Shown in pieces: positions 1 through 31,930 of a stretch of DNA of 55,350 bases. Position 1 is the stretch's first letter; each line of letters opens with the position of its first letter. Source of the DNA: Nanobdellota archaeon (lineage in GTDB: Archaea; Nanobdellota; Nanobdellia; SCGC-AAA011-G17; JACPNG01); NCBI GenBank assembly GCA_038046345.1, contig JBBSWJ010000029.1, forward strand, positions 1-55,350, given 5' to 3'. A program made the position numbers and the translations under genes. Below the pieces are notes generated by a model. It made no database searches and had not been told where the DNA came from. It saw nothing but the letters and a program-made list of their open reading frames with translations.

Positions 1-42
1 ATGGATGTTTTAAGATAGTATAAACTGTATAGATCAAGAAAG

Positions 43-131
43 AAAATGGGAATGGTCTAGTGTGGGTAATTACAATAATTATTGTGTTATTAATTGTTGT
101 AGGATATTTGTTTGTTAAAAGAAGAAAGTAA
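43..131 (+). pseudogene. Orphan 3' fragment (TM tail plus stop) of a surface-protein gene, matching 3076..3164 with one mismatch (g50 vs a3083)
   Basis: Encodes ...NGNGLVWVITIIIVLLIVVGYLFVKRRK* in the frame ending with TAA at 129..131. The same frame has stops at 21..23 and 30..32 and no homology to the 781-aa gene upstream of about position 43. Confidence 0.5.
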
Positions 132-278
132 CCTTTTGTGTTAATGTCATAATAGCTGAGATAAAGAAAGTACTAACGGAATGACTGTTTTAGGTTATAC
201 AGTAATTTTATTAAGAAGCATACTACTTTAATAATCAAACCAAAATAGGCGGTTAAGTTTATTAAAACCTGGTGGAAA

Positions 279-680
279 ATGACTAAACAAGGACAAGAAG
301 ATCAAACAACCATGAATCATGTATACGAAAATGGTTTGGAAAATACAGTAAGGCTAGAGCTATTGCAAAGTAGATTAGGAAATGCTAGAAAAAGGCAATT
401 AGCAGTTTATATCAGAGCAGCAGCAAGAACAATTTTACCAGTTGTAGGTTTTGTTGCTGTTAGTGGTGGTATAGCTAAGTGTAATGATTATTTATTTGAT
501 AACAGTGGTTTAGCTGAATTGATTACAATTGTGACTGTTGGTACTGCTGGTTGGATATTAAGCACTAGTGGTGCAGTAAAAGACTACTGCTGGTTGGTTA
601 GTGATGCAATAGATTCTATAAGAGATGCAAATATGATGATTAGACATTACAGAAAACAACTCACTGAATTAGAGCAATAA
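279..680 (+). CDS. Hypothetical small membrane protein (two predicted TM helices flanked by charged/coiled segments), cassette copy A
   Basis: 133-aa ORF with GGTGG 4 nt upstream of the ATG. Hydrophobic stretches ILPVVGFVAVSGGIA and LITIVTVGTAGWILSTSGAV. Exact duplicate at 3312..3713. Confidence 0.7.
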   Translation: MTKQGQEDQTTMNHVYENGLENTVRLELLQSRLGNARKRQLAVYIRAAARTILPVVGFVAVSGGIAKCNDYLFDNSGLAELITIVTVGTAGWILSTSGAVKDYCWLVSDAIDSIRDANMMIRHYRKQLTELEQ

Positions 681-818
681 ACATTTCTTTTATTTTTTTA
701 TATCACCTAATTTTTTACACAAATGATTTTTTTTAGAAACATTTAAATATAAGTTACTCTTTTAATTTCCTAAGGTGATAGTTATTACAAAAAAAATTGG
801 TGTAAGGGGGGATTTTCT

Positions 819-3164
819 GTGAATACCAAATTATTATTACTTTTAGTTATAACAATCTCAATTTTTTCTTTTAACTCTAATCTTATTGTTGCAGATATAA
901 ATACGCAATTAAATTCTGAGCTGATTAATGTGACATTATCTCCAGCGGTGGGTGTTGGAGCAACAGTATTCGGAGATCAAATACAGCAAAATAATACAAA
1001 TGTAAGATTTAACTTTACTATTGCTGTTAATGGTACAATTAATTTTACTATAATTAACATAACAGTTCCTCATAATATTACATTTACTGGAGATTTTACA
1101 GTAAATGATACTGATGATGTGCTTGCTGTGGATGAGGATTTTGCAGGTCTAGCTAATGCAACAAATGATACGGGCGAAGGTGGTAATCCATGGGTATTTT
1201 CGAACTCAACAGATGCAGGTGATGATATAAAGTATATACACTGGAATAGTACTGATCCTAATGGAACCGGCGGTGCAGTGATATTTAGCATTAATTTTAC
1301 TGCTAATAATCTAACCGGAAATGTAGATGATGCAAGAATTGATTGGAATATAAGTATCACCTTTGCAGATGGTGGGCATGAAGACCCGAACTCAGCTGCA
1401 AGTGAGAACTCAACAGTAGTATACACATGGGTAGATATGCTTGTACCAAGATTATCTGAAGTTAATGTAACTGATGGGAATGCAACATTAGTTAATGGTA
1501 CTGCATATGGGTTTGAGGCAGATTTTGATGATGATAATGTACAAGTAATGGACCACTTTTCAAATAAAAGTGCTACAGTATATACTACCTTAACAGAAAT
1601 AAATGTTGATCAATTAAATATGTACTACTTATGTAATAGTAGTGTTGGTGAAGCAAATGTAACATTTGCTGCATTCTACAGCAATGTAAGTATGAGTACT
1701 AGTGATTCTGTATCACCATACTTATTTACAGGCACAATTGATCATGCTAACTGTGTAAACACAGAGAATAACGCAACAACATTCTTATTTTCAATAACAG
1801 ATGATGCAAATAGGCATACTTCTGTTAATGATAGCGTAGGTGCAGCAGATGTTAGTGTACCATTTGGATTTGGGGTAATAGGAAATAGCAGTCTCCCAGT
1901 AATAATTGAGGTAAATATAACAGATCAAAGCAGGACACTTAAACTAAACGATAAGGGGTTACGCGGAGGAAATGATTATTTATCATCTAACTCTAGAATG
2001 GACATAAATGTAGATATGAGTGGAAGAGGATTTGCATCAGATTCTGATGGATCAAACCAGTCATTCTTTTACATAACAAACACAACCACCGAATCAAATA
2101 CTCGCTTTGAAGATTGGTTTTCAGAAGGACAACAAATAGGATTGTTAAACATATCTAGGGATATAGACGGCAGTGGTAGTTTAACATCACAATTTAATGG
2201 AACAATACCTAAAGGACTTATAAACGATACTGATGGAACATCTGGAACATCAACAGGTAATTTTACAAATTTCCTGCTATTAATAAATGACTCGCGTGAC
2301 TACACACAACACTTCTTTGGAGTATTTGTTGTGGACGGAGGAGATCCAACAGCTAAAATAACAAGCCCTGCTGATACGAATATTAATGTGTTGAACAGCA
2401 TAAAGTATGGTTGTTCAGGAACTGATAGTGTTAGCGGTATAGCAGAATGTAAGGTGAGTGTATCAAAACCTGATGGAACTGTTATTAGTAAGACTAGCAG
2501 TAATTGTGTTGATCAGACATTCACTAATACTGATACAAATCTACCAGGAGCATACACTGTTGAATGTACAGTTACGGATAGTGTTGGATACACATCTGCT
2601 AAAACAACTGGTGCATTTGATGCTAGTACCTCAGCTGGAACTAGCGGTGACAGTGGCGGTGGCAGTAGTGGTGGAACTGGTACTAGCAGATCTGGAGAGG
2701 AACTAACTTTAGATGCTGATTTGAGTACCTCTGATGCAAGCTTTACTGGTAAAGCTGGTGAAACAAAAGTCTTTAGTTTGAGTGGCGGTGATGCTCATAC
2801 CGTGACATTTGTTGAAGTTACTGAAGATTCTGTAACTATAACAATTGAGAGTTATAAAGCTGAAGTAACATTGAATGTTGGTGAGACTAAAGATGTAGAT
2901 ATGGACGGTGATGGAACACCTAATATTCAAGTAACATTAGAAAGTATTACTAATGGTGTTGCAAAGATCAGCTTTGTAAAACTGTCAGATGTAGTCCCTG
3001 AAGAAGAAACAGAACAAGAACCAAGCACTGAAGAAAAAGAAGAAGGAAAAATAGAAGAAGAGGTTAATAATAACCAAAATGGAAATGGTCTAGTGTGGGT
3101 AATTACAATAATTATTGTGTTATTAATTGTTGTAGGATATTTGTTTGTTAAAAGAAGAAAGTAA
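819..3164 (+). CDS. Large surface (S-layer-like) glycoprotein, copy A: signal peptide, sequon-rich N-terminal region, PKD/Ig-like domain, G/S linker, C-terminal TM plus KRRK tail
   Basis: GTG start preceded by AAGGGGGG. N-terminal hydrophobic signal. 35 N-X-S/T sequons by my count in the first ~520 aa. AYTVECTVTDSVGYT resembles a PKD motif. Tail is LVWVITIIIVLLIVVGYLFVKRRK. Confidence 0.9.
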   Translation: MNTKLLLLLVITISIFSFNSNLIVADINTQLNSELINVTLSPAVGVGATVFGDQIQQNNTNVRFNFTIAVNGTINFTIINITVPHNITFTGDFTVNDTDDVLAVDEDFAGLANATNDTGEGGNPWVFSNSTDAGDDIKYIHWNSTDPNGTGGAVIFSINFTANNLTGNVDDARIDWNISITFADGGHEDPNSAASENSTVVYTWVDMLVPRLSEVNVTDGNATLVNGTAYGFEADFDDDNVQVMDHFSNKSATVYTTLTEINVDQLNMYYLCNSSVGEANVTFAAFYSNVSMSTSDSVSPYLFTGTIDHANCVNTENNATTFLFSITDDANRHTSVNDSVGAADVSVPFGFGVIGNSSLPVIIEVNITDQSRTLKLNDKGLRGGNDYLSSNSRMDINVDMSGRGFASDSDGSNQSFFYITNTTTESNTRFEDWFSEGQQIGLLNISRDIDGSGSLTSQFNGTIPKGLINDTDGTSGTSTGNFTNFLLLINDSRDYTQHFFGVFVVDGGDPTAKITSPADTNINVLNSIKYGCSGTDSVSGIAECKVSVSKPDGTVISKTSSNCVDQTFTNTDTNLPGAYTVECTVTDSVGYTSAKTTGAFDASTSAGTSGDSGGGSSGGTGTSRSGEELTLDADLSTSDASFTGKAGETKVFSLSGGDAHTVTFVEVTEDSVTITIESYKAEVTLNVGETKDVDMDGDGTPNIQVTLESITNGVAKISFVKLSDVVPEEETEQEPSTEEKEEGKIEEEVNNNQNGNGLVWVITIIIVLLIVVGYLFVKRRK

Positions 3165-3311
3165 CCTTTTGTGTTAATGTCATAATAGCTGAGATAAAGA
3201 AAGTACTAACGGAATGACTGTTTTAGGTTATACAGTAATTTTATTAAGAAGCATACTACTTTAATAATCAAACCAAAATAGGCGGTTAAGTTTATTAAAA
3301 CCTGGTGGAAA

Positions 3312-3713
3312 ATGACTAAACAAGGACAAGAAGATCAAACAACCATGAATCATGTATACGAAAATGGTTTGGAAAATACAGTAAGGCTAGAGCTATTGCA
3401 AAGTAGATTAGGAAATGCTAGAAAAAGGCAATTAGCAGTTTATATCAGAGCAGCAGCAAGAACAATTTTACCAGTTGTAGGTTTTGTTGCTGTTAGTGGT
3501 GGTATAGCTAAGTGTAATGATTATTTATTTGATAACAGTGGTTTAGCTGAATTGATTACAATTGTGACTGTTGGTACTGCTGGTTGGATATTAAGCACTA
3601 GTGGTGCAGTAAAAGACTACTGCTGGTTGGTTAGTGATGCAATAGATTCTATAAGAGATGCAAATATGATGATTAGACATTACAGAAAACAACTCACTGA
3701 ATTAGAGCAATAA
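3312..3713 (+). CDS. Hypothetical small two-TM membrane protein, cassette copy B (identical to 279..680)
   Basis: Protein identical to copy A, with the same upstream sequence. Confidence 0.7.
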   Translation: MTKQGQEDQTTMNHVYENGLENTVRLELLQSRLGNARKRQLAVYIRAAARTILPVVGFVAVSGGIAKCNDYLFDNSGLAELITIVTVGTAGWILSTSGAVKDYCWLVSDAIDSIRDANMMIRHYRKQLTELEQ

Positions 3714-3851
3714 ACATTTCTTTTATTTTTTTATATCACCTAATTTTTTACACAAATGATTTTTTTTAGAAACATTTAAATATAAGTTACTCTTTTAATT
3801 TCCTAAGGTGATAGTTATTACAAAAAAAATTGGTGTAAGGGGGGATTTTCT

Positions 3852-6194
3852 GTGAATACCAAATTATTATTACTTTTAGTTATAACAATCTCAATTTTTT
3901 CTTTTAACTCTAATCTTATTGTTGCAGATATAAATACGCAATTAAATTCTGAGCTGATTAATGTGACATTATCTCCAGCGGTGGGTGTTGGAGCAACAGT
4001 ATTCGGAGATCAAATACAGCAAAATAATACAAATGTAAGATTTAACTTTACTATTGCTGTTAATGGTACAATTAATTTTACTATAATTAACATAACAGTT
4101 CCTCATAATATTACATTTACTGGAGATTTTACAGTAAATGATACTGATGATGTGCTTGCTGTGGATGAGGATTTTGCAGGTCTAGCTAATGCAACAAATG
4201 ATACGGGCGAAGGTGGTAATCCATGGGTATTTTCGAACTCAACAGATGCAGGTGATGATATAAAGTATATACACTGGAATAGTACTGATCCTAATGGAAC
4301 CGGCGGTGCAGTGATATTTAGCATTAATTTTACTGCTAATAATCTAACCGGAAATGTAGATGATGCAAGAATTGATTGGAATATAAGTATCACCTTTGCA
4401 GATGGTGGGCATGAAGACCCGAACTCAGCTGCAAGTGAGAACTCAACAGTAGTATACACATGGGTAGATATGCTTGTACCAAGATTATCTGAAGTTAATG
4501 TAACTGATGGGAATGCAACATTAGTTAATGGTACTGCATATGGGTTTGAGGCAGATTTTGATGATGATAATGTACAAGTAATGGACCACTTTTCAAATAA
4601 AAGTGCTACAGTATATACTACCTTAACAGAAATAAATGTTGATCAATTAAATATGTACTACTTATGTAATAGTAGTGTTGGTGAAGCAAATGTAACATTT
4701 GCTGCATTCTACAGCAATGTAAGTATGAGTACTAGTGATTCTGTATCACCATACTTATTTACAGGCACAATTGATCATGCTAACTGTGTAAACACAGAGA
4801 ATAACGCAACAACATTCTTATTTTCAATAACAGATGATGCAAATAGGCATACTTCTGTTAATGATAGCGTAGGTGCAGCAGATGTTAGTGTACCATTTGG
4901 ATTTGGGGTAATAGGAAATAGCAGTCTCCCAGTAATAATTGAGGTAAATATAACAGATCAAAGCAGGACACTTAAACTAAACGATAAGGGGTTACGCGGA
5001 GGAAATGATTATTTATCATCTAACTCTAGAATGGACATAAATGTAGATATGAGTGGAAGAGGATTTGCATCAGATTCTGATGGATCAAACCAGTCATTCT
5101 TTTACATAACAAACACAACCACCGAATCAAATACTCGCTTTGAAGATTGGTTTTCAGAAGGACAACAAATAGGATTGTTAAACATATCTAGGGATATAGA
5201 CGGCAGTGGTAGTTTAACATCACAATTTAATGGAACAATACCTAAAGGACTTATAAACGATACTGATGGAACATCTGGAACATCAACAGGTAATTTTACA
5301 AATTTCCTGCTATTAATAAATGACTCGCGTGACTACACACAACACTTCTTTGGAGTATTTGTTGTGGACGGAGGAGATCCAACAGCTAAAATAACAAGCC
5401 CTGCTGATACGAATATTAATGTGTTGAACAGCATAAAGTATGGTTGTTCAGGAACTGATAGTGTTAGCGGTATAGCAGAATGTAAGGTGAGTGTATCAAA
5501 ACCTGATGGAACTGTTATTAGTAAGACTAGCAGTAATTGTGTTGATCAGACATTCACTAATACTGATACAAATCTACCAGGAGCATACACTGTTGAATGT
5601 ACAGTTACGGATAGTGTTGGATACACATCTGCTAAAACAACTGGTGCATTTGATGCTAGTACCTCAGCTGGAACTAGCGGTGACAGTGGCGGTGGCAGTA
5701 GTGGTGGAACTGGTACTAGCAGATCTGGAGAGGAACTAACTTTAGATGCTGATTTGAGTACCTCTGATGCAAGCTTTACTGGTAAAGCTGGTGAAACAAA
5801 AGTCTTTAGTTTGAGTGGCGGTGATGCTCATACTGTAACATTTGTTGAAGTTACTGAAGATTCTGTAACTATAACAATCGAGAGCTATAAAGCTGAAGTA
5901 ACATTAAATGTTGGTGAGACTAAAGAAGTTGACATGGACGGGGATGGAACACCTAATGTCCAAGTAACATTAGAAAGTATTACTAATGGTGTTGCAAAGC
6001 TCAGCTTTGTAAAACTATCAAATGTAGTACCTGAAGAAGAAACAGAACAAGAACCAAGCATGGAAGAAAAAGAAGAAATACCTGTAGGATCAGGCGTAAC
6101 AGAAACAGGTATAAGCTTATGGACATGGGTAGTATTATTAGCTGTGCTGGTACTAGTTGGCTTTGTAGTATTCAGAGTCATGAAAAGGAAGTAA
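3852..6194 (+). CDS. Large surface glycoprotein, copy B, with a divergent C-terminal anchor
   Basis: Identical to copy A until about aa 660. A few substitutions follow, then a different tail: PVGSGVTETGISLWTWVVLLAVLVLVGFVVFRVMKRK. Confidence 0.9.
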   Translation: MNTKLLLLLVITISIFSFNSNLIVADINTQLNSELINVTLSPAVGVGATVFGDQIQQNNTNVRFNFTIAVNGTINFTIINITVPHNITFTGDFTVNDTDDVLAVDEDFAGLANATNDTGEGGNPWVFSNSTDAGDDIKYIHWNSTDPNGTGGAVIFSINFTANNLTGNVDDARIDWNISITFADGGHEDPNSAASENSTVVYTWVDMLVPRLSEVNVTDGNATLVNGTAYGFEADFDDDNVQVMDHFSNKSATVYTTLTEINVDQLNMYYLCNSSVGEANVTFAAFYSNVSMSTSDSVSPYLFTGTIDHANCVNTENNATTFLFSITDDANRHTSVNDSVGAADVSVPFGFGVIGNSSLPVIIEVNITDQSRTLKLNDKGLRGGNDYLSSNSRMDINVDMSGRGFASDSDGSNQSFFYITNTTTESNTRFEDWFSEGQQIGLLNISRDIDGSGSLTSQFNGTIPKGLINDTDGTSGTSTGNFTNFLLLINDSRDYTQHFFGVFVVDGGDPTAKITSPADTNINVLNSIKYGCSGTDSVSGIAECKVSVSKPDGTVISKTSSNCVDQTFTNTDTNLPGAYTVECTVTDSVGYTSAKTTGAFDASTSAGTSGDSGGGSSGGTGTSRSGEELTLDADLSTSDASFTGKAGETKVFSLSGGDAHTVTFVEVTEDSVTITIESYKAEVTLNVGETKEVDMDGDGTPNVQVTLESITNGVAKLSFVKLSNVVPEEETEQEPSMEEKEEIPVGSGVTETGISLWTWVVLLAVLVLVGFVVFRVMKRK

Positions 6195-6263
6195 TTAACC
6201 TTTTCTTTTTCTATTTTTTAATTGCATAATCATTATAAAGCTAAATATGAAGACATAGTTCTT

Positions 6264-7007
6264 ATGAATATTTTAAAATTATTGATCATCTTGCTTTTTT
6301 TAATACCATTAGCAAGCGCTGGAGAAAGATACGAACTAGATTTTGAAGATATACCAACAAAAACAATAGAATACACTCTTCTAAAAAGAGACATAGCAGT
6401 GTTTAATTATCCTGTGAGAGTGTATAAAGAACCACAAATAGTCGATGGAAAAGAACAGATAGAATATGAAATAGAAGAACAACAAGAAGCAATAATGGTA
6501 AGGGATATAAGAATTACGAAAAAAGAGATAAAAGTTACTGATCTAACACTATTTATTGAAGGGGCACCAACCCCACAATATGTTGCAGCAGCAGCTGACG
6601 ATGTAATTAATGTTGATTTTGAAAAGGATTTAGTGGATGATCTTAGAATAGAAATTATTAAAGTTGATCCAGAACAAGGAGTGTTCTTTAGATTTGTACC
6701 AATCGATACAAGCAATGCCACTCCAAACCCCCAGGAGTTTAAGGGTGGAAAATCAGTACCTAAGATAACTGGTGGTGGTGAATCATCGTTATCGTTCTGG
6801 GATAAAACAAAATTGAGCATATCCAATATTCCGGATAAAACAAGTGAAATTATTGGTCTTTTGATATTGGACACATCACCGGAAAGCCCATGGCAGGTGA
6901 GAGTATTAGCAGGCCATTGGAAGATTACTATTATAGCAGTTTTAGTTCTGATAATCCTTGCATGGAATCAAAGAAGGATAAGAAGATTACTTAGAAGACG
7001 ATTATAG
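6264..7007 (+). CDS. Hypothetical exported protein with a signal peptide and a C-terminal TM plus Arg-rich tail
   Basis: ORF 6222..7007. The internal ATG at 6264 gives MNILKLLIILLFLIPLASAGE (a signal peptide). C-terminus is ITIIAVLVLIILAWNQRRIRRLLRRRL. Confidence 0.7.
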   Translation: MNILKLLIILLFLIPLASAGERYELDFEDIPTKTIEYTLLKRDIAVFNYPVRVYKEPQIVDGKEQIEYEIEEQQEAIMVRDIRITKKEIKVTDLTLFIEGAPTPQYVAAAADDVINVDFEKDLVDDLRIEIIKVDPEQGVFFRFVPIDTSNATPNPQEFKGGKSVPKITGGGESSLSFWDKTKLSISNIPDKTSEIIGLLILDTSPESPWQVRVLAGHWKITIIAVLVLIILAWNQRRIRRLLRRRL

Positions 7008-7015
7008 CTTATTAT

Positions 7016-7099
7016 CGCAGAGAGAGGGATTTGAACCCCCAAATCCTTTCGGAAGCTAGTTTTCGAGACTAGTGCACTACCGGATTATGCGATCTCTGC
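7016..7099 (-). tRNA. tRNA-Ser (anticodon CGA), 84 nt, long variable arm
   Basis: Folded by hand on the reverse complement. Acceptor GCAGAGA/TCTCTGC, D stem GCAT/GTGC, anticodon stem CTAGT/ACTAG with loop CTCGAAA. 15-nt variable arm, T arm GGGGG-TTCAAAT-CCCTC, discriminator G. Confidence 0.9.
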
Positions 7100-7106
7100 A
7101 AGAATT

Positions 7107-7481: not shown

Positions 7482-7607
7482 ATGATCATGAAGATTGATA
7501 GTTCATAAAGTTTTTGGGGGCGATTTTTAAAGGAATTGTTGCTTTGTCTTAGTATTATAAGGCAAATTTGTATGGACAAAAAGGTATGTTGTTATTTTTG
7601 GGTTACA

Positions 7608-7619
7608 CTATATATATAT
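7608..7619 (+). promoter_or_regulatory. TATA box about 27 nt upstream of ATG 7640 (leaderless-type promoter)
   Basis: CTATATATATAT. The same spacing recurs at 8925, 15123, 26445, 27714, 43385 and 47123. Confidence 0.5.
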
Positions 7620-7639
7620 GTAATGTATACCTTTATCTT

Positions 7640-8176
7640 ATGCAAAAGAAATTTACTTATGTTATTTTTGTAGCAACATTATTGGTACTTCTTCTTACAG
7701 CTCAACAGTGTGATATTCCAGATACTCCAGTTACTGAAGCTATTGCACATCAAGATACTGAGTTTGTAAAAGATTTGTATGTTACTAATGTTGGTTTTGT
7801 ATATGCTGGTGATCCCAATGAAAACAGTTCTGCAACATTAAACAGTTCTGCAACATTAAACATAGGTAATGAATATAATCTGAAAGTAACAAAATATGTT
7901 ATCGTTAGAGGAAAAGAAGTTAAGCTTGATGATATCGGAAGTGACGGTGCAGTAGTTGTTATTGTTGATAGTGTAACAGAAGTAATCTCACCTAAAATTA
8001 CAGAGTTAGTTAATGGTCTTTTCATAACTTTAGTAGAATATACAGAACGTGATGCTACATTTAATATTGGAGATGAATATGTTCTTAATGTTGAAGAATC
8101 AGCTACTGTAAATGGAAAACAATTGACACTTGATGACGTTGGAAGTGACGGCGCAGTAATTGTTACTGTGTACTAA
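7640..8176 (+). CDS. Hypothetical exported (possibly lipid-anchored) protein with an internal two-domain repeat
   Basis: Start chosen at MQKKFTYVIFVATLLVLLLTAQQC. The motif ATLNIGNEYNLKV...VKLDDIGSDGAVVVIVD recurs as ATFNIGDEYVLNV...LTLDDVGSDGAVIVTV. Confidence 0.7.
   Translation: MQKKFTYVIFVATLLVLLLTAQQCDIPDTPVTEAIAHQDTEFVKDLYVTNVGFVYAGDPNENSSATLNSSATLNIGNEYNLKVTKYVIVRGKEVKLDDIGSDGAVVVIVDSVTEVISPKITELVNGLFITLVEYTERDATFNIGDEYVLNVEESATVNGKQLTLDDVGSDGAVIVTVY
7823..7858 (+). repeat. Perfect in-frame 18-bp tandem duplication (AACAGTTCTGCAACATTA x2, encoding NSSATL NSSATL)
   Basis: Read directly from the sequence, inside CDS 7640..8176. Confidence 0.9.
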
Positions 8177-8296
8177 AGTGTAATATTCTGAAATTTTTGA
8201 AGGAGAGTATGTGAGCGTTAATGCAAGATTTGGGATGGTTGCTGATGGTATGGATACATTTATTTAGTGTATAACTTATAGTAAAAGTTAATACAT

Positions 8297-8818
8297 ATGA
8301 GCTTAGAACGAAATTTACAAAATGCATCTGAAACAAATAATGTCCTTTTTACTAGTGTTGATTATATTTTAAATTGGGGGAGAAGTAATTCAGTGTGGTA
8401 CCTACTGTTCGGGCTTGCATGTTGTGCTATAGAGATGATGCAAACTGGAGGGCCAAGAGCAGATCTTGATAGGTTTGGTTCTGTATTCCGTGCAACACCA
8501 AGACAGTCAGATCTTTTAATTGTTTCAGGTACAATCACATTAAAAATGGCTGAGAGGGTTAAATTACTTTATAACCAAATGGCTGAACCAAAATATGTTA
8601 TTTCTATGGGCAGCTGCGCAAATTGTGGTGGTTTATTTGATTTAGGTTATTCATGCCTAAATGGAATTGATAAACTAATTCCAGTGGATGTGTATGTTCC
8701 TGGTTGTCCACCAAGACCTGAGGCTTTAATTGAGGGGCTATTAGTACTTCAAGAAAAAATAAGGAGAGAGAGGTATCTTGGTGATAGAAGACTTAAGGGG
8801 AGGCAATTATCTGCTTAA
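8297..8818 (+). CDS. nuoB: NuoB-like subunit (NADH:quinone oxidoreductase 20-kDa subunit / energy-converting hydrogenase small-subunit family), solitary
   Basis: [17 protein letters not shown] and [11 protein letters not shown] supply the four Cys of the N2-type 4Fe-4S site. The overall sequence is a typical NuoB core. Confidence 0.85.
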
Positions 8819-8924
8819 AATTAATTGGGTTGGTGAGCTATAATATATTGTTTTTGTGATATCCTTAAGATTGTGGTTTCTGAGCTGCTGTCTTGAAAAA
8901 GTATTTTTCGTATAACAAACGAAA

Positions 8925-8936
8925 GATATATATATG
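8925..8936 (+). promoter_or_regulatory. TATA box about 26 nt upstream of ATG 8956
   Basis: GATATATATATG, preceded by the short inverted repeat TTTCGT-N7-ACGAAA (8907..8925). Confidence 0.45.
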
Positions 8937-8955
8937 TATAACCTATGTTTATCTC

Positions 8956-9612
8956 ATGGAAAGACTACCATTATCACTTTGGATTAAGAAAGAAACACAG
9001 CGAAAAATAGCGCAAGCACAAGATATCATAGTAGAAGAAGTTTATGCCATCTTTGAGAAAGCAATATTACATGGTGGAACAGCAATTTGGAGATGCTATG
9101 CTGGAAAGCGATTCTCAGAAGATATTGATTTTTACTTTCCTAAGAACAAAGAAAAGATAGATTCTATTTTTCAATCTTTAACAAATAAAGGTTTTCAAGT
9201 TCTTAAGAAGAAGATATCTGAAACGAGTGTTTATTCAGAATTGCTTTTTGAAAGAACATCTGTAAGGTTAGAAGCAACATTCCTAAAAAAAGAAGCTATC
9301 ATCACTGATTATGAAACATTAAATGGGCGTATCATCGCTGTTTATAGTTTAACACCTGAAATGTTTGTTATTGAAAAGGCTCATGCATACCTCAAAAGAT
9401 TCAAAATTAGGGATTTATGGGATATATTTTTTCTTTTACACCTAATAAAAAATAATCATATTGTAAAGAAAGAGCTTGAGCACCTTATTAAAAATTATAA
9501 AAATCCAATTGATGAAGCAGACCTTAAAATAATTATTTTTGAAGGAATTGTACCATCATCACAGGAAATGTTTAGGTACATCACACAAAAATGGGAAAAC
9601 GAATACATCTAG
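8956..9612 (+). CDS. AbiEii/AbiGii-family nucleotidyltransferase toxin (type IV TA, DUF1814-like)
   Basis: GGTAIWRCYAGKRFSEDIDFYF matches the family hallmark GGTAL...RxSxDxDF. Start placed at MERLPLSLW. Confidence 0.75.
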   Translation: MERLPLSLWIKKETQRKIAQAQDIIVEEVYAIFEKAILHGGTAIWRCYAGKRFSEDIDFYFPKNKEKIDSIFQSLTNKGFQVLKKKISETSVYSELLFERTSVRLEATFLKKEAIITDYETLNGRIIAVYSLTPEMFVIEKAHAYLKRFKIRDLWDIFFLLHLIKNNHIVKKELEHLIKNYKNPIDEADLKIIIFEGIVPSSQEMFRYITQKWENEYI

Positions 9613-10175
9613 ACAGGATAGAACAACTATTTGAGAAAAGCCCAGTAGTAGATATTAGGTCTATAAAAAGAATTATAAAACTACACTCAAAAAATACTGC
9701 ATATGCTAAACTTGTTATACATAATTTGCTTAAGAAAAATAAAATACAAAAAATTGCAAAGGGATACTACACCAAGTATAATGATAACTCCCTTGCTGTT
9801 CTTTGCTATAACCCTGCGTACTTAGGATTACAAACTGCGTTGAGTTATCATCAACTTTGGGATCAGGAAACAATACCAGTAATTCTAACACCACAAAAAA
9901 TACGACAAGGGATACGTACTGTTGCTGGAGGGAATGTCATGTTTAGAAATATTCAAAAAAAATACTGTTTTGGTTTTGATTATTACCAAGATGGTATGTT
10001 TTATTTGCCGTACTCTGATATTGAGAAAACGTTTATTGACCTTGTTTTATTTAAACAACCTATTTCTAAAGAACTTTTAAAAATTTTTCGTAAAAAAGTT
10101 GATAAGAAAAGAGTAATTACATACTTGAAAGTATACCCAGAAAATATTAGAAGAAAGGTATTAAAATTAATTTAA
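9591..10175 (+). CDS. AbiEi-like antitoxin / wHTH transcriptional regulator
   Basis: The N-terminal region ...IQKIAKGYYTKY, then PAYLGLQTALSYHQLWDQ and ...DIEKTFIDLVLF, resemble the AbiEi (COG5340) pattern. Overlaps the toxin gene by 22 nt. Confidence 0.6.
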   Translation: MGKRIHLDRIEQLFEKSPVVDIRSIKRIIKLHSKNTAYAKLVIHNLLKKNKIQKIAKGYYTKYNDNSLAVLCYNPAYLGLQTALSYHQLWDQETIPVILTPQKIRQGIRTVAGGNVMFRNIQKKYCFGFDYYQDGMFYLPYSDIEKTFIDLVLFKQPISKELLKIFRKKVDKKRVITYLKVYPENIRRKVLKLI

Positions 10176-10402
10176 GGTTGAACTAAAATCTATGATTTGT
10201 TAGCCTTGTGAACATCTCTATAAACATTTGTTTTACTTCTAGGGGTGTCAATAATGGATGAAAGATACTCATTCACATTAAAATGTACTTTAATTTTCTT
10301 AGGTGGAAGGTTAAACATAGCAAGGTTATCAATCACTGCTTGTTAATCAATAAATATTCTCTTCCAGCACTAAACTCATAAAGGTAGCTATTCAAGAAAA
10401 AA

Positions 10403-10486
10403 CGCCGAGGGCAGGATTTGAACCTACATATCCTTTCGGAAACTGGTTTTCAAGACCAGCGCACTACCAGATTATGCGACCTCGGC
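10403..10486 (-). tRNA. tRNA-Ser (anticodon TGA), 84 nt
   Basis: Reverse complement folds with acceptor GCCGAGG/CCTCGGC and anticodon stem CTGGT/ACCAG around loop CTTGAAA. Long variable arm, T arm GTAGG-TTCAAAT-CCTGC, discriminator G. Confidence 0.9.
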
Positions 10487-10523
10487 AATGAGATTACGGT
10501 ATGAAAAGAACTTTTAAACTTTC

Positions 10524-11228
10524 TTATTTCTTAATAAATTGCCACTGATGAGGTCTGTTTAGAATCATATGCTTGCAACGTTGTGTAACGTCAACAAAGG
10601 CAGGAATTTTTTTGTTAAAGGCGTCTAAAAAAAACCAGCGGTCATCAAAAGTTATATCTCCTTCAACACGAAATTCAATTTGTTCAAGAACTTCGCGGTG
10701 TATCAGCAAGCAACCAAGACCTGCTGATACAATAGGCTGCAATGGTTCTCCGTAAAAAATTTCATTATGGGTTAATGGCCTCATAGATGGTACTGGATCA
10801 TCTGAAGGAAGCGACTTATAAGCTAAAGGAATGAGCACATTATTATCATTCCAAATATTTCTTGCAAAATAGATGCCAGAGATAAGCTTTTTATTGTGAG
10901 ATAATAATTTTTGAATGAGATTTGGTGGCGGGATAACATCCTGTTCTAAGCTTAAAAACCATTCATATCCCCCGTCAAGAACTTTTTTTCTAAGGAGATT
11001 ACGAGACGCAACAATACGCTCACGTGCTCCTTCAATCCATGGACCACGGGATACTTCAAAACCAAGGCTAGCAAGCTGCTTAAAATATTTAAGATCTTTA
11101 CTATTCTCCACTAGAGCAACATCAAATTTGCGGTAAGTTAGACTGCGCAGCCCGTTCATGTACTCGAGAATACAATATTCTTTATGAAAACTAGTTGGAC
11201 AGCCTACAAGCATATTATTTTTTACCAT
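10524..11228 (-). CDS. Probable GT-A fold glycosyltransferase (GT2-like)
   Basis: 234 aa. The N-terminal beta-alpha pattern VGCPTSFHKEY...VALVENSKD, the acidic motif SLEQDV and GLGCLLIHREVLEQIEF are typical of GT2-type enzymes. The call rests on pattern only. Confidence 0.5.
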   Translation of the reverse strand: MVKNNMLVGCPTSFHKEYCILEYMNGLRSLTYRKFDVALVENSKDLKYFKQLASLGFEVSRGPWIEGARERIVASRNLLRKKVLDGGYEWFLSLEQDVIPPPNLIQKLLSHNKKLISGIYFARNIWNDNNVLIPLAYKSLPSDDPVPSMRPLTHNEIFYGEPLQPIVSAGLGCLLIHREVLEQIEFRVEGDITFDDRWFFLDAFNKKIPAFVDVTQRCKHMILNRPHQWQFIKK

Positions 11229-11230
11229 TT

Positions 11231-12211
11231 CTACTCGAAATTTGAGCGGTATTTCCTTTTTAAAAGAATACCAATTATAATGAATAGTATTACAACAATT
11301 ATAATAACTATTGTAGTAATAAAAATTGACTTACCATGGATTTCACCACCTAGAAGAACACTTTTTTGTTGGCTCTTAAGCGGTGTTGCTTCCCGCTCAA
11401 GTTGCTTGAAATTATCAATAACAGCATCTACTTTAGTGGGTTCAACTGGCTCTGAGCCTGCAGTAATCTTGGTTATAAAATATGATTTATCACAATAAGC
11501 AAAATCATCAAATTTTACATTAGGATAAACACTTGGATGGCAGGATTTTGGCAGATTGTCTTTTAATAAGATGATCATTGACTCAACAGAATTATCAGGC
11601 AAGGGCACAGTCAGTTTGGTAATACCATTAGGATAAGTGGTGAAAATACTCCCTTGTGTTATTGAACCGGACTTAGAAAATGCACCTTCAACTGATTTGA
11701 AGTTAGACACAGCGTTAATAGTGATATCAACAACATCACTTGGATGAAGAACTACCCCTTGATTTAGCCCGCTTATGTTTAGATCAGCAATTAAAGAATC
11801 ATTATCCATGCCACATTTAACAATGTCAACACCTAATAAGTCGCAAGTAAAAAATAATCCTGGACATGAGGCTGCATCTGAAATAGATCTGTTAACTCCG
11901 CTTTCAGTAAAAGTTGCAATAAATGTATGCATTCCTTCTTTATTTATAGAAGCAGATGGAGTAGTGAATGTGTCATATCGACTCTTAGCAGTATCACTAG
12001 CTTTAATGTGTTTACCTTCCCAAAATCCTGATAGTTTTGTTCCGTCCATGTTTATACTTATAGAATCAGTATAAATCTTTTGATCATCAAGGTCAGCAGC
12101 AAAAGTAATCTCGGCATGGCCATCATCGAAACATTCAATGTCATAAAACCTTAATGCATTGACTGCAGGAAGAAAAATTAGAACTAACAATAATAAAAAG
12201 TACCACCTCAT
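11231..12211 (-). CDS. Hypothetical surface protein with a signal peptide and a C-terminal TM plus basic tail
   Basis: N-terminus is MRWYFLLLLVLIFLPAVNA. C-terminus is SIFITTIVIIIVVILFIIIGILLKRKYRSNFE. Confidence 0.75.
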   Translation of the reverse strand: MRWYFLLLLVLIFLPAVNALRFYDIECFDDGHAEITFAADLDDQKIYTDSISINMDGTKLSGFWEGKHIKASDTAKSRYDTFTTPSASINKEGMHTFIATFTESGVNRSISDAASCPGLFFTCDLLGVDIVKCGMDNDSLIADLNISGLNQGVVLHPSDVVDITINAVSNFKSVEGAFSKSGSITQGSIFTTYPNGITKLTVPLPDNSVESMIILLKDNLPKSCHPSVYPNVKFDDFAYCDKSYFITKITAGSEPVEPTKVDAVIDNFKQLEREATPLKSQQKSVLLGGEIHGKSIFITTIVIIIVVILFIIIGILLKRKYRSNFE

Positions 12212-12239
12212 ATCTATGCTTATTTAAACTTGTTTTTAA

Positions 12240-12851
12240 TCATTTTGGTGGTCTAATAATACCAATCAATTCAAAATTCAAACGATCAACAGCCCTGATA
12301 ATGTCAATTTCGTTGCCCCCATGAACTAAAATGCAGTTATTTTTCAGGCTTACTGAAGTATCATTAGCTAATTCAAGAATTATCAAACCATCTTTTGTTT
12401 TATCACAGGTTAAAACCGGAATATCTGGATGTTTGCTATCAAACTCAGTAAACGAGCTAAATACAGGGATACCAAAAAATGACTCAATAAACCCATCTAT
12501 ACTCAATCCTGCTAGAGCTGTAAGCCCCCTTAATTCAGGATCAAATGGATTGATGCCAACAAATATTTTCTCCTTGCTTAAGACATAATCTTTTACATTA
12601 CCTATAACAGAAATATTGTCTACTAAGTTTGGTGGATTACGAGAGTTTAGATAATATGGATTACCATTGTGTATAAACTCTACCCTGTATGTTGTGATCT
12701 TACCATTGGACACTGGTTGAACTTTAAAATCATTATACAAGTAAGCCCCTTCAATTGCTAGATTCTGTTTTACTAACACCGTACCTAAAAAGAGCAAGAA
12801 TAAAACTACTACAACAAGAAATATTTTTTTTATTTTATGTTCATTATTCAT
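12240..12851 (-). CDS. Hypothetical N-terminally anchored protein, paralog of 12848..13423
   Basis: N-terminal TM segment. The C-terminal block NDTSVSLKNNCILVHGGNEIDIIRAVDRLNFELIGII aligns with the neighbouring protein. Confidence 0.7.
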   Translation of the reverse strand: MNNEHKIKKIFLVVVVLFLLFLGTVLVKQNLAIEGAYLYNDFKVQPVSNGKITTYRVEFIHNGNPYYLNSRNPPNLVDNISVIGNVKDYVLSKEKIFVGINPFDPELRGLTALAGLSIDGFIESFFGIPVFSSFTEFDSKHPDIPVLTCDKTKDGLIILELANDTSVSLKNNCILVHGGNEIDIIRAVDRLNFELIGIIRPPK

Positions 12852-28703: not shown

Positions 28704-28801
28704 CGCCCAAGCCGGGAATCGAACCCGGATCGCAGCCGTTCTACAAAACCATAAATGAATTTTTCGACAGGGCTACGTGATAGCCGTTACACTACTTGGG
28801 C
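28704..28801 (-). tRNA. tRNA-Asp (anticodon GTC) with a ~26-nt intron in the anticodon loop
   Basis: Reverse complement folds with acceptor GCCCAAG/CTTGGGC, discriminator G and T arm CCGGG-TTCGATT-CCCGG. The anticodon stem TAGCC/GGCTG encloses 33 nt beginning CTGTC. The exact splice sites were not resolved. Confidence 0.75.
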
Positions 28802-31802: not shown

Positions 31803-31930
31803 CCCGCTGTAGTTTAGTGGTAGAACATTCGGCTGTAGCTAGTAGCGCTGTTTTGACCTTAGCACTTGCCAGGGATGATAAATATTCAGCAGAACCCGGA
31901 AAGTCGCTGGTTCGAATCCAGCCAGCGGGA
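31803..31930 (+). tRNA. tRNA-Tyr (anticodon GTA) with a ~56-nt intron
   Basis: Acceptor CCCGCTG/CAGCGGG gives a C1-G72 pair, with discriminator A. D stem GTTT/GAAC. The anticodon stem TTCGG/CCGGA encloses 63 nt beginning CTGTAG. T arm GCTGG-TTCGAAT-CCAGC. Confidence 0.85.

Follow-up and report, generated by a model that had tools for sequence, protein, structure and literature searches.

The analysed window, a complete metagenome contig of 55,350 nt assembled from short reads of a groundwater archaeon (Hainich), carries two old and different 3' ends of surface glycoprotein genes, arranged head to tail. In the deposited sequence both follow the same 2.75-kb body, and two head-to-tail copies appear at an offset of 3,033 nt. 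We consider it roughly an even bet (probability about 0.5) that these are tandem surface-glycoprotein paralogs homogenised by recombination, with a copy number that probably varies in the population. The graph topology, the age and selection of the 3' ends and the breakpoint are firmly established; the perfect second copy and the copy number are unproven.

The window was compared with itself, ungapped, at an offset of 3033. Positions 51-2800 and 3084-5833 were 100% identical over 2,750 nt, and a perfect repeat of 2.75 kb cannot be of chance origin. To the left, positions 43-49 match as well and position 50 is mismatched (G vs A). To the right, 18 mismatches were counted in the 245 nt of 2801-3045 vs 5834-6078 (92.7% identity), and from 3046/6079 on nothing above the background of this AT-rich DNA remains (30-42% ungapped identity). 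The first difference thus falls at 2801 vs 5834, exactly where the preliminary description of this DNA had placed it, identity running to 2800/5833; its estimate of about 17 substitutions in about 250 bp, several of them synonymous, agrees with the 18/245 counted, 11.5 changes being synonymous. On base-by-base alignment the differences are clustered past 2800/5833 and not evenly spread, which supports a step in identity rather than a gradient (0/2750, then 18/245, then no similarity), the zero being partly a product of the assembly.

The repeat body, here called R, lies at 51-2800 (+) in its first pass and at 3084-5833 (+) in its second, and contains a gene end (tail 1), a spacer, a 133-aa ORF, the promoter/SD region and the first 1,982 nt of a large gene. 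The diverged 3' segments v1 (2801-3045, +) and v2 (5834-6078, +) were delimited by comparison with each other; v1 encodes residues 661-742, comprising the last beta-sandwich domain and an acidic linker. In copy 1 it is followed by the linker l1 ('in2'; 3046-3083, +), assigned from its sequence context, which forms the back-edge of the graph loop and is the only sequence physically joining the 3' end of a gene to the start of the next unit. Copy 2 ends with linker 2 and the tail-2 TM anchor (…GISLWTWVVLLAVLVLVGFVVFRVMKRK*; 6079-6194, +). The unique sequence before the repeat amounts to 50 nt only. The left flank of the contig (in1; 1-42, no strand assigned) is non-coding in the tail-1 frame and gave only short chance matches in the window or in any fetched locus. 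A third copy of tail 1 (…NGNGLVWVITIIIVLLIVVGYLFVKRRK*; 43-131, +), preceded by an in-frame stop (TAG at 30-32), had already been reported and was recovered here by tblastn and self-comparison; it represents what is left of an upstream paralog's 3' end, with no gene body attached.

Two ORF pairs offset by exactly 3033 nt, as previously described, occupy the units: 279-680/3312-3713 and 819-3164/3852-6194. The large genes encode a surface glycoprotein of 781 aa in copy 1 (819-3164, +), with signal peptide, beta-sandwich domains and the tail-1 TM anchor, and of 780 aa in copy 2 (3852-6194, +), with the tail-2 anchor. Their DNA is identical for 1,982 nt. The large shared part of the proteins was recognised before but underestimated at about 660 aa: 691 residues are identical before residue 692 brings the first substitution (D/E), protein identity outlasting DNA identity because the first nucleotide differences are synonymous. 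The glycoprotein has a hydrophobic N-terminus and a TM helix at about 753-779, followed by KRRK. Its N-X-S/T sequons number 35 (15.5+-3.4 expected), all within residues 37-490. An AF2 model (pLDDT 74) consists of all-beta domains, and Foldseek returned generic Ig-like, adhesin and MG-domain proteins. No sequence match was found in Pfam, NCBIfam or PDB, nor to a described S-layer family, and the family to which the protein belongs has no name and comprises 1,382 relatives at E<=1e-3. The locus product is an S-layer-like archaeal surface glycoprotein built as a chain of Ig-like beta-sandwich domains. An upstream TATA-like box (742-752) and SD (804-812) lie inside R and are consequently the same in both copies. 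A sigma-70 promoter/terminator scan, a method ill-suited to archaea, gave nothing above shuffled expectation.

The 133-aa ORF (279-680, + in copy 1; 3312-3713, + in copy 2) showed positive coding periodicity and codon usage in this frame only. Its two products are identical, as had been stated, and a helical structure with two segments of moderate hydrophobicity is predicted for them; the single-sequence AF2 model is of low confidence (pLDDT 45), and no homologue was found among 5.8 billion proteins. It was considered as the conserved partner of the surface protein and rejected for want of a homologue, and the genes of about 130 aa upstream of the homologues P0010 and P0011 proved unrelated to it. 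Outside the repeat unit, at 6264-7007 (+), a 247-aa protein with signal peptide and C-terminal TM segment is encoded, which is 35% and 33% identical (E 5e-41 and 3e-31) to the products of the genes immediately downstream of P0011 and P0009, respectively. The downstream gene of about 240 aa is the conserved partner of the surface-protein family, as in the relatives. Copy 2, directly upstream of it, occupies the ancestral context.

Whatever walk the assembler took, both 3' ends are old, paralogous and under purifying selection. Between v1 and v2, 11.5 synonymous and 5.5 non-synonymous changes were counted (dS 0.25, dN 0.029, dN/dS 0.115), and both reading frames are open and intact. Both tail 1 and tail 2 match the anchor pattern of the family, and the resemblance of tail 1 to the anchor of the paralog P0008 (…IMWIVTIIVIVLIIVGYFYVKRRD) marks it as a genuine family anchor. 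The earlier view that the tails are unrelated past 3046/6079 consequently holds for the DNA, which is at background identity; the anchors are still homologous, at the level of protein pattern only. Two v2 alleles carry v1-type bases (L002, 5879 T; L006, 5942 T), which is compatible with exchange between the paralogs.

How R itself is to be read depends on the assembly (metaSPAdes, 2x150 bp reads, scaffolds >1 kb kept). Since the window is a short-read contig, the repeat belongs to the assembly path and need not exist in a DNA molecule. At k=55 R forms a single edge of the graph, entered by two paths and left by two, and everything 5' of nt 2800 is a single sequence in the graph. Because its 2,750 nt are longer than 2x150 bp reads can span, the 100% identity is not a measurement; it is produced by metaSPAdes using the one edge twice, and it loses the value as a sign of recency that the preliminary description had given it. 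A molecule that carries v1-l1 must have the end of R at its left and tail 1 and the spacer at its right, and just one linear walk, in1-R-v1l1-R-v2, passes through every one of the four junctions a single time. The position of the v1/tail-1 end directly upstream of a cassette is independent of the assembler's walk.

Sibling contigs show the same graph. Base 51/3084 is the exact first base of L001 and L002 (metaSPAdes) and of L003 (Logan, k=31), and for L003 this is the predicted in-branch node; L001 and L002 cover all of R and continue through one cassette, and L003 is a fragment of R, unbranched from 51 to 1839. L010 and L009 start at 5961 and 6031, the k=31 branch nodes predicted if v1 and v2 are both present. 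L004 (replicate R3) begins with 10 nt of l1 before tail 1, and L005 with 1 nt. The junction at which a gene's 3' end meets the next unit is thus present in independent data (L003, L004, L005, L009 and L010), and v1-l1-tail1, a coherent selected ORF end in at least three read sets, represents real DNA junctions and not a chimera. Any assembly holds at most 50 nt of sequence to the left of R. Exact-protein look-ups returned other contigs with at most one full cassette or fragments of R, all of which start at or inside R and are therefore blind to an upstream unit. A 60-mer of tail 1 had no match in GTDB species genomes or JGI metagenomes. A homologue search for v1 fragments with the C-terminal 142 aa scored nothing, the parent cluster included, and of ten guessed unitig-derived peptides (v1 plus v2 controls) none was present on exact look-up, the controls included.

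For copy number, k-mer coverage was taken from the contig names of replicate R3 as a proxy for read depth. L004, wholly inside R, has a coverage of 6.26 and L006, with 1,753 nt of R and 6,107 nt of unique sequence, 5.76, giving an R/unique ratio of 1.11. The depth of about 2x over the repeat was not seen in this proxy (P ~1.5e-4 under two copies, Poisson); in R2 the values are 8.96 vs 8.68 on another contig, an insensitive comparison. L010 (R3) passes position 6000 with no branch, which suggests that v1 is under-covered in R3, and a coverage gap is found inside R at about 4100-4150. Upstream of tail 1, only the in2-type context is present in R3 and in1 is absent. Sibling contigs also carry unphased variants at 4873 and in a patch at 5687-5762 that occur in neither copy of the window; at least some true differences have therefore been erased or were never phased. 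Similar variant patches lie in the single-copy flank (6443-6500), and a strain mixture alone could be their source. The mismatch-rich start of L006 (4080-4179) was considered as the body of a diverged paralog and discarded, as its changes are transversions without exception, most of them giving T, a pattern typical of poor reads at a coverage gap.

In the favoured explanation, homologous recombination between tandem units, by unequal crossing-over or gene conversion, would most likely have homogenised or re-duplicated the 2.75-kb body recently. The breakpoint lies within the final beta-sandwich domain; the ends with stalk and anchor, which are older, would have been kept distinct, and the orphan tail 1 would have remained at the array's left edge. 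A homogenised 5' body shared by older paralogs, one of the readings first offered for this locus, fits both the step profile and the old, selected 3' ends. Direct repeats of 2.75 kb would also be expected to collapse through recombination, and cells with one unit (in1-R-v2-tail2) and with two units probably coexist. Mixed copy number fits the R3 coverage of about 1.1 and the passage of L010 through 6000. The in2-only left context in R3 fits poorly with in1 lying upstream of every haplotype, unless in1 is undersampled. Between wells, L007 (well H32) shows 0/2256 differences in R, 6/245 in v, 2/116 in tail 2 and 5/1191 in the flank; the 2.75-kb body is thus identical in H51 and H32 over the 2,256 nt compared though the flanks differ by 0.4%, and this step near 2800/5833 does not depend on the loop.

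The main competitor, less probable but still to be reckoned with, is an assembly loop artefact. In that case each genome would hold one full cassette, and the stretch from 43 to some point x in R would not be a real second copy; the v1/tail-1 end would belong to an upstream paralog, truncated or diverged 5' of x and having no more than a final stretch of at least 54 nt in common with the resident gene, and metaSPAdes would have re-entered the shared edge and written the resident body twice. A 2,750-nt repeat is indeed beyond the reach of 2x150 bp metaSPAdes reads, three sibling contigs break exactly at its first base, and the window begins just 50 nt before it; the R3 ratio of 1.11, the coverage gap inside R and the gene-end context (in2) as sole left neighbour of tail 1 in R3 point the same way. 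The artefact mentioned as an alternative in the preliminary description is therefore a serious one as regards the repeated body, but not as regards the junctions, which are not spurious: v1-l1-tail1 is an intact, selected ORF end in several read sets. Such a loop also needs a separate in-branch inside R, and there is none in any assembly, L003 being unbranched and L001/L002 crossing the whole of R. The lower coverage of v1 than of v2 in R3 is unexpected for a fixed single-copy neighbour, and the in1-tail 1 junction is left unexplained. No diverged paralog (<90% identical) other than P0008 was found in the same samples, a weak argument because cut genes are unindexed.

That a 3,033-bp unit (43-3075) was simply duplicated very recently, its copies being still undiverged, had also been suggested for this locus and is improbable. 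The offset of exactly 3,033 nt and the perfect identity over 2,750 nt would agree with it; however, it predicts uniform near-identity up to the unit boundary and an l1 linker kept in copy 2, while the final 275 nt of the unit show their age (dS 0.25 at 7.3% divergence, then 30 nt with no similarity). It further requires an unattached tail 1 at 43-131 beforehand, although tail 1 is a bona fide family anchor. The step profile with its old, selected 3' parts therefore contradicts it, and a rescue by replacement of the 3' end would turn it into the recombination model. Least probable of all is a single chromosomal unit accompanied by a 3,033-bp circle (R-v1-l1), as excision product of an earlier duplication or small episome sharing R, which would give the same graph topology as a tandem duplication and an R3 repeat coverage only slightly above 1x, but the unit holds only the ORFan and the surface-protein gene, with no replication or mobility gene, excision circles that do not replicate are quickly lost, and the orphan tail 1 at the left edge would still require an array history.

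If the array of recombining paralogs is real and variable, it would offer a concrete case of an envelope glycoprotein whose dosage and anchor vary through recombination, in a small-celled archaeon that is uncultured and probably symbiotic; organisms of this kind meet hosts and viruses at the cell surface. The idea already voiced that the repeat serves to vary the anchoring of a dominant antigen is speculation. We hold it rather unlikely that the main surface glycoprotein of this ultra-small groundwater archaeon lies in a recombining array toggling between one and two (or more) units, altering the dosage and the ratio of two stalk/anchor isoforms, and that the 2.75-kb body has recently swept between wells. 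A practical caution applies to MAG contigs built from short reads: a tandem repeat that is perfect over several kilobases, above all at the end of a contig, can be a single edge of the graph written out twice, and where depth or long-read support is missing it should not be taken as a recent duplication.

The locus shares with de Bruijn repeat loops the two in-edges and two out-edges, one out-edge feeding back, and siblings that end at the branch node; unlike in artefact loops, the back-edge here is coherent selected coding sequence in at least three read sets. Among S-layer systems, the sap homologues of Campylobacter fetus have identical 5' regions that end abruptly; they are served by one promoter, with silent copies, switching by inversion and a variable exposed part. 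The genes described here are likewise S-layer-type genes with a common, identical 5' block ending abruptly. In contrast to sap, both copies carry the same TATA-like box and SD, the repeats are direct, and the exposed part is identical, with only stalk and anchor differing. Cassette-type antigenic variation of the sap or pil kind was accordingly rejected, as the upstream regions are identical and the exposed domains are the identical part.

Concerted evolution by gene conversion is known between duplicated bacterial genes such as tufA/tufB, and unstable tandem duplication-amplifications collapse by homologous recombination (the duplication dynamics of Roth and Andersson). The step from identity to older divergence at a breakpoint resembles the former. 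As in the latter, long direct repeats are expected to expand and collapse, and heterogeneity of copy number is compatible with the 1.1x coverage of R3. Unlike these systems, the present one belongs to an uncultured archaeon known from metagenome contigs. The lpl cluster of Staphylococcus aureus consists of tandem paralogs that recombine at conserved cores, with a unit of 3' end, intergenic region and 5' end (Tsuru & Kobayashi 2008, PMC2568036). There, a large cluster was compared across complete genomes; here two units are seen, in metagenome contigs rather than finished genomes, and the conserved part is nearly the whole ectodomain, the membrane-proximal domain and anchor being variable. As in lpl, the boundaries of the repeat unit do not coincide with those of the ORFs, the unit running from a 3' tail through the intergenic region into the 5' part of the next gene(s), and in both cases the products are surface or host-interaction proteins; recombination at an identical stretch reshuffles their variable ends in lpl and probably here as well.

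Self-comparison of the window at an offset of 3,033 nt gave a stepped profile. Positions 43-49 are the same in both units, position 50 is a mismatch, and 51-2800 equals 3084-5833 with zero mismatches over 2,750 nt (the repeat body). This is followed by 18 mismatches in 245 positions between 2801-3045 and 5834-6078, the 3' segments v1 and v2 of the two copies of the surface-glycoprotein gene, and by background-level identity from 3046/6079 on. Two 133-aa ORFs, identical to each other, and two large genes (819-3164 and 3852-6194) encoding 781 and 780 aa are present. The large genes have their first 1,982 nt in common; the first residue to differ between their products is 692, and the products end in different C-termini (…STEEKEEGKIEEEVNNNQ… versus …SMEEKEEIPVGSGVTE…), the transmembrane anchors called tail 1 and tail 2. 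A third tail-1 segment lies at 43-131, preceded by an in-frame TAG at 30-32; the window has no further copy. The preliminary description had listed this ORF layout, the first nucleotide difference at 2801 versus 5834, about 17 substitutions in the next 250 bp or so, unrelated sequence after 3046/6079 and a third tail-1 copy behind in-frame stops, all of which is confirmed. No counterpart of bases 1-42 was found elsewhere in the window or in any fetched locus.

The window is the entire 55,350-nt contig (NCBI, ENA), and the source organism is an archaeon, as judged from an archaeal RNase P RNA, Rad50/Mre11 and RNase J, a GC content of 33.6% and the provenance from the 0.1-um fraction. Sibling contigs are named in the form Hain_H51_01um_R2/R3_..._length_..._cov_..., and the Hainich groundwater filters were sequenced as 2x150 bp reads and assembled per replicate with metaSPAdes v3.13, scaffolds over 1 kb being kept (PMC8672522). 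ERR3858114 and ERR3858115 are among the H51 0.1-um read sets in PRJEB36505. In a de Bruijn graph computed from positions 1-7000 at k=55, the repeat body forms a single repeated edge (51-2800) whose only in-branch node is at 51 and whose only out-branch node ends at 2800, and v1 and v2 have no common 55-mer because the gaps between their differences are all shorter than 55 nt. The contig thus follows a walk from the left flank (in1, 1-42) through the body, v1 and its linker (l1, 3046-3083), the body again and v2. The body was written twice from one edge, 150-nt reads being too short to span it, and real differences between copies, if spaced by more than k, would appear as bubbles in the graph and be collapsed there. 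The 100% identity of the two copies is not a measurement, and the contig exaggerates it.

Variants that could be collapsed in this way do exist. Contigs L001 (GCA_964359605.1, 68,488 nt) and L002 (replicate R2, 68,096 nt) have other bases than the window at 4873 and at 9-10 sites in 5687-5762, a patch with seven synonymous and two non-synonymous changes in a Gly/Ser linker; L006 differs at 4873. At these sites the window has one and the same allele in both copies of the body. Four junctions, in1 to body, l1 to body, body to v1 and body to v2, are reproducible across read sets, as the start points of sibling and Logan contigs show. L001 and L002 both start at the first base of the body (3084/51) and continue through one cassette with tail 2; a Logan fragment of the body from ERR3858114 (L003) starts there as well and ends at 1839, one base short of the 1840/4873 variant. 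Of the Logan contigs, L010 begins at 5961 and L009 at 6031; if v1 and v2 coexist, the k=31 graph is predicted to branch at exactly these two nodes. Two further contigs begin with 10 nt (L004, replicate R3) or 1 nt (L005) of the linker. In no assembly was the repeat resolved from reads, and none has sequence more than 50 nt to the left of the body.

Several observations are independent of the assembler's walk. The changes that separate v1 from v2 number 11.5 synonymous against 5.5 non-synonymous (dS 0.25, dN 0.029, ratio 0.115), and both segments are old coding sequences under selection. One v1-type base each occurs in the v2 alleles of L002 and L006. The two tails align only weakly to each other, and each conforms to the family pattern. 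Tail 1 is very similar to the anchor of the paralog P0008, and the orphan tail 1 at 43-131 is thus the relic of a real gene end. In any molecule with v1-l1, the end of the body lies to the left of this stretch and tail 1 with the spacer to the right, so that an upstream paralog, if only a partial one, must be arranged head to tail. Contig L007, from another well (H32), matches the window without a difference across 2,256 nt of the body, where about 9.5 differences would be expected at the flank rate, against 6 of 245 sites in the v segment, 2 of 116 in tail 2 and 5 of 1191 in the flank. As the loop plays no part in this comparison, it shows independently that there is a breakpoint near 2800/5833 and that the body is relatively young. 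In the single-copy flank (6443-6500), three to four linked SNPs separate L002, L006, L009 and L010 (R2/R3) from the window and L001, which points to two or more strains living together in well H51, or to recombination patches there.

Features of the large protein are a hydrophobic signal sequence and a C-terminal transmembrane helix followed by KRRK. Its 35 N-X-S/T sequons (15.5±3.4 expected) all lie in residues 37-490. No Pfam, NCBIfam or PDB sequence-family match was obtained. An AF2 model based on 40 homologues (pLDDT 74) predicts a chain of beta-sandwich domains, for which the Foldseek matches were generic Ig-like, adhesin and MG-domain proteins. Among 1.84 billion representatives, 1,382 relatives were found at E<=1e-3, many of them full-length, and the C-terminal ~280 residues are best conserved. 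The breakpoint between body and v segments falls at residue 661, within the last beta-sandwich domain (639-721). P0008, a 45%-identical paralog, occurs as one copy flanked by aEF-2 and aEF-1alpha on a different contig from this sample (L092, 99.6 kb; coordinates 7568-9934, 10001-12355), the aEF-2 gene carrying an intein domain.

The 133-aa ORF is coding-like, and a search for its homologues found none anywhere. At its position, directly upstream of the surface-protein gene, relatives (L094 1586-1981 and L095 2224-2616) have ~130-aa genes whose products are 55% identical to each other, with an N-terminal transmembrane segment and a Cys-rich beta region; these genes, upstream of P0010 and P0011, proved unrelated to the ORFan. 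The conserved neighbour in distant relatives is instead the downstream gene for a ~240-aa protein with signal peptide and C-terminal transmembrane anchor (window 6264-7007; L093 6783-7469; L095 5247-5966), the product of 6264-7007 being 35% and 33% identical to those of the genes after P0011 and P0009. It is likely a functional partner of the surface protein and a member of no described family. Copy 2, with tail 2, therefore has the ancestral context, copy 1 being the extra unit, and the 'two-gene cassette' of the preliminary description does not correspond to the module conserved in evolution.

Other genes of the window were also noted. A 202-aa protein (7568-8176; weak DUF4179 match) has two internal repeats (…NIGNEYNLKV…DDIGSDGAVVV… / …NIGDEYVLNV…DDVGSDGAVIV…) reminiscent of a motif in the membrane-proximal domain of the large protein. 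A lone NuoB-like gene (Oxidored_q6) at 8297-8818, near which no other nuo genes were found, has bacterial NuoB as nearest genome matches, with identities as high as 88% at the amino-acid level, against a bacterial MAG contig of 66% GC; the gene's own GC3 of 0.23 is native to the archaeon, and an old transfer from bacteria is possible. It adjoins an AbiEii-type nucleotidyltransferase toxin gene (8893-9612 and an overlapping downstream ORF); AbiEii belongs to type IV toxin-antitoxin/abortive infection systems. Two Rfam tRNAs missed by ARAGORN, 28704-28801 (98 nt) and 31803-31930 (128 nt), probably contain introns, and the tRNA-Ser genes at 7015-7100 and 10402-10487 are 80% alike.

A hint on copy number came from k-mer coverage in replicate R3 only. 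L004, wholly within the body, has 6.26 and L006 (1,753 nt of body and 6,107 nt of unique sequence) 5.76, which gives a ratio of body to unique sequence of 1.11 (Poisson P ~1.5e-4 if two copies). Within the body, at ~4100-4150, coverage is interrupted and the contig tips are rich in errors; the number of gaps to be expected is ~0.2 per kb at 1x and 0.0015 per kb at 2x. L010 is unbranched through 6000, which suggests that v1 is under-covered in R3. These data argue against two fixed copies in R3 and fit either a population in which a minority of chromosomes carry two units, or a first copy that is in part an artefact. For a mixed population it is awkward that R3 has only the l1-type left context, in1 being absent.

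The best-supported account, to which we give a probability of roughly one half, is that of tandem surface-glycoprotein paralogs, as a pair or an array, whose 2.75-kb body would have been homogenised or re-duplicated recently by homologous recombination up to the breakpoint at 2800, with old 3' ends and a copy number that is probably heterogeneous across the population. The conversion tract between older paralogs proposed earlier is retained in so far as the distinct ends are old; the 100% identity, as one edge written twice, does not speak for recency. The main rival, in which all or part of the first copy would have arisen when the assembler looped through an upstream paralog, itself partial or diverged, is less probable. 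A 3-kb circle with a single chromosomal copy is a further, improbable alternative. The age of the 3' ends contradicts a plain, very recent segmental duplication, which had also been proposed earlier. Recent homogenisation or re-duplication of tandem paralogs would be comparable to the lpl genes of S. aureus, where the unit spans a 3' end, the intergenic region and a 5' end (PMC2568036). Genome dynamics of this type are familiar; in the present case they would concern a family of archaeal surface proteins that has no name.
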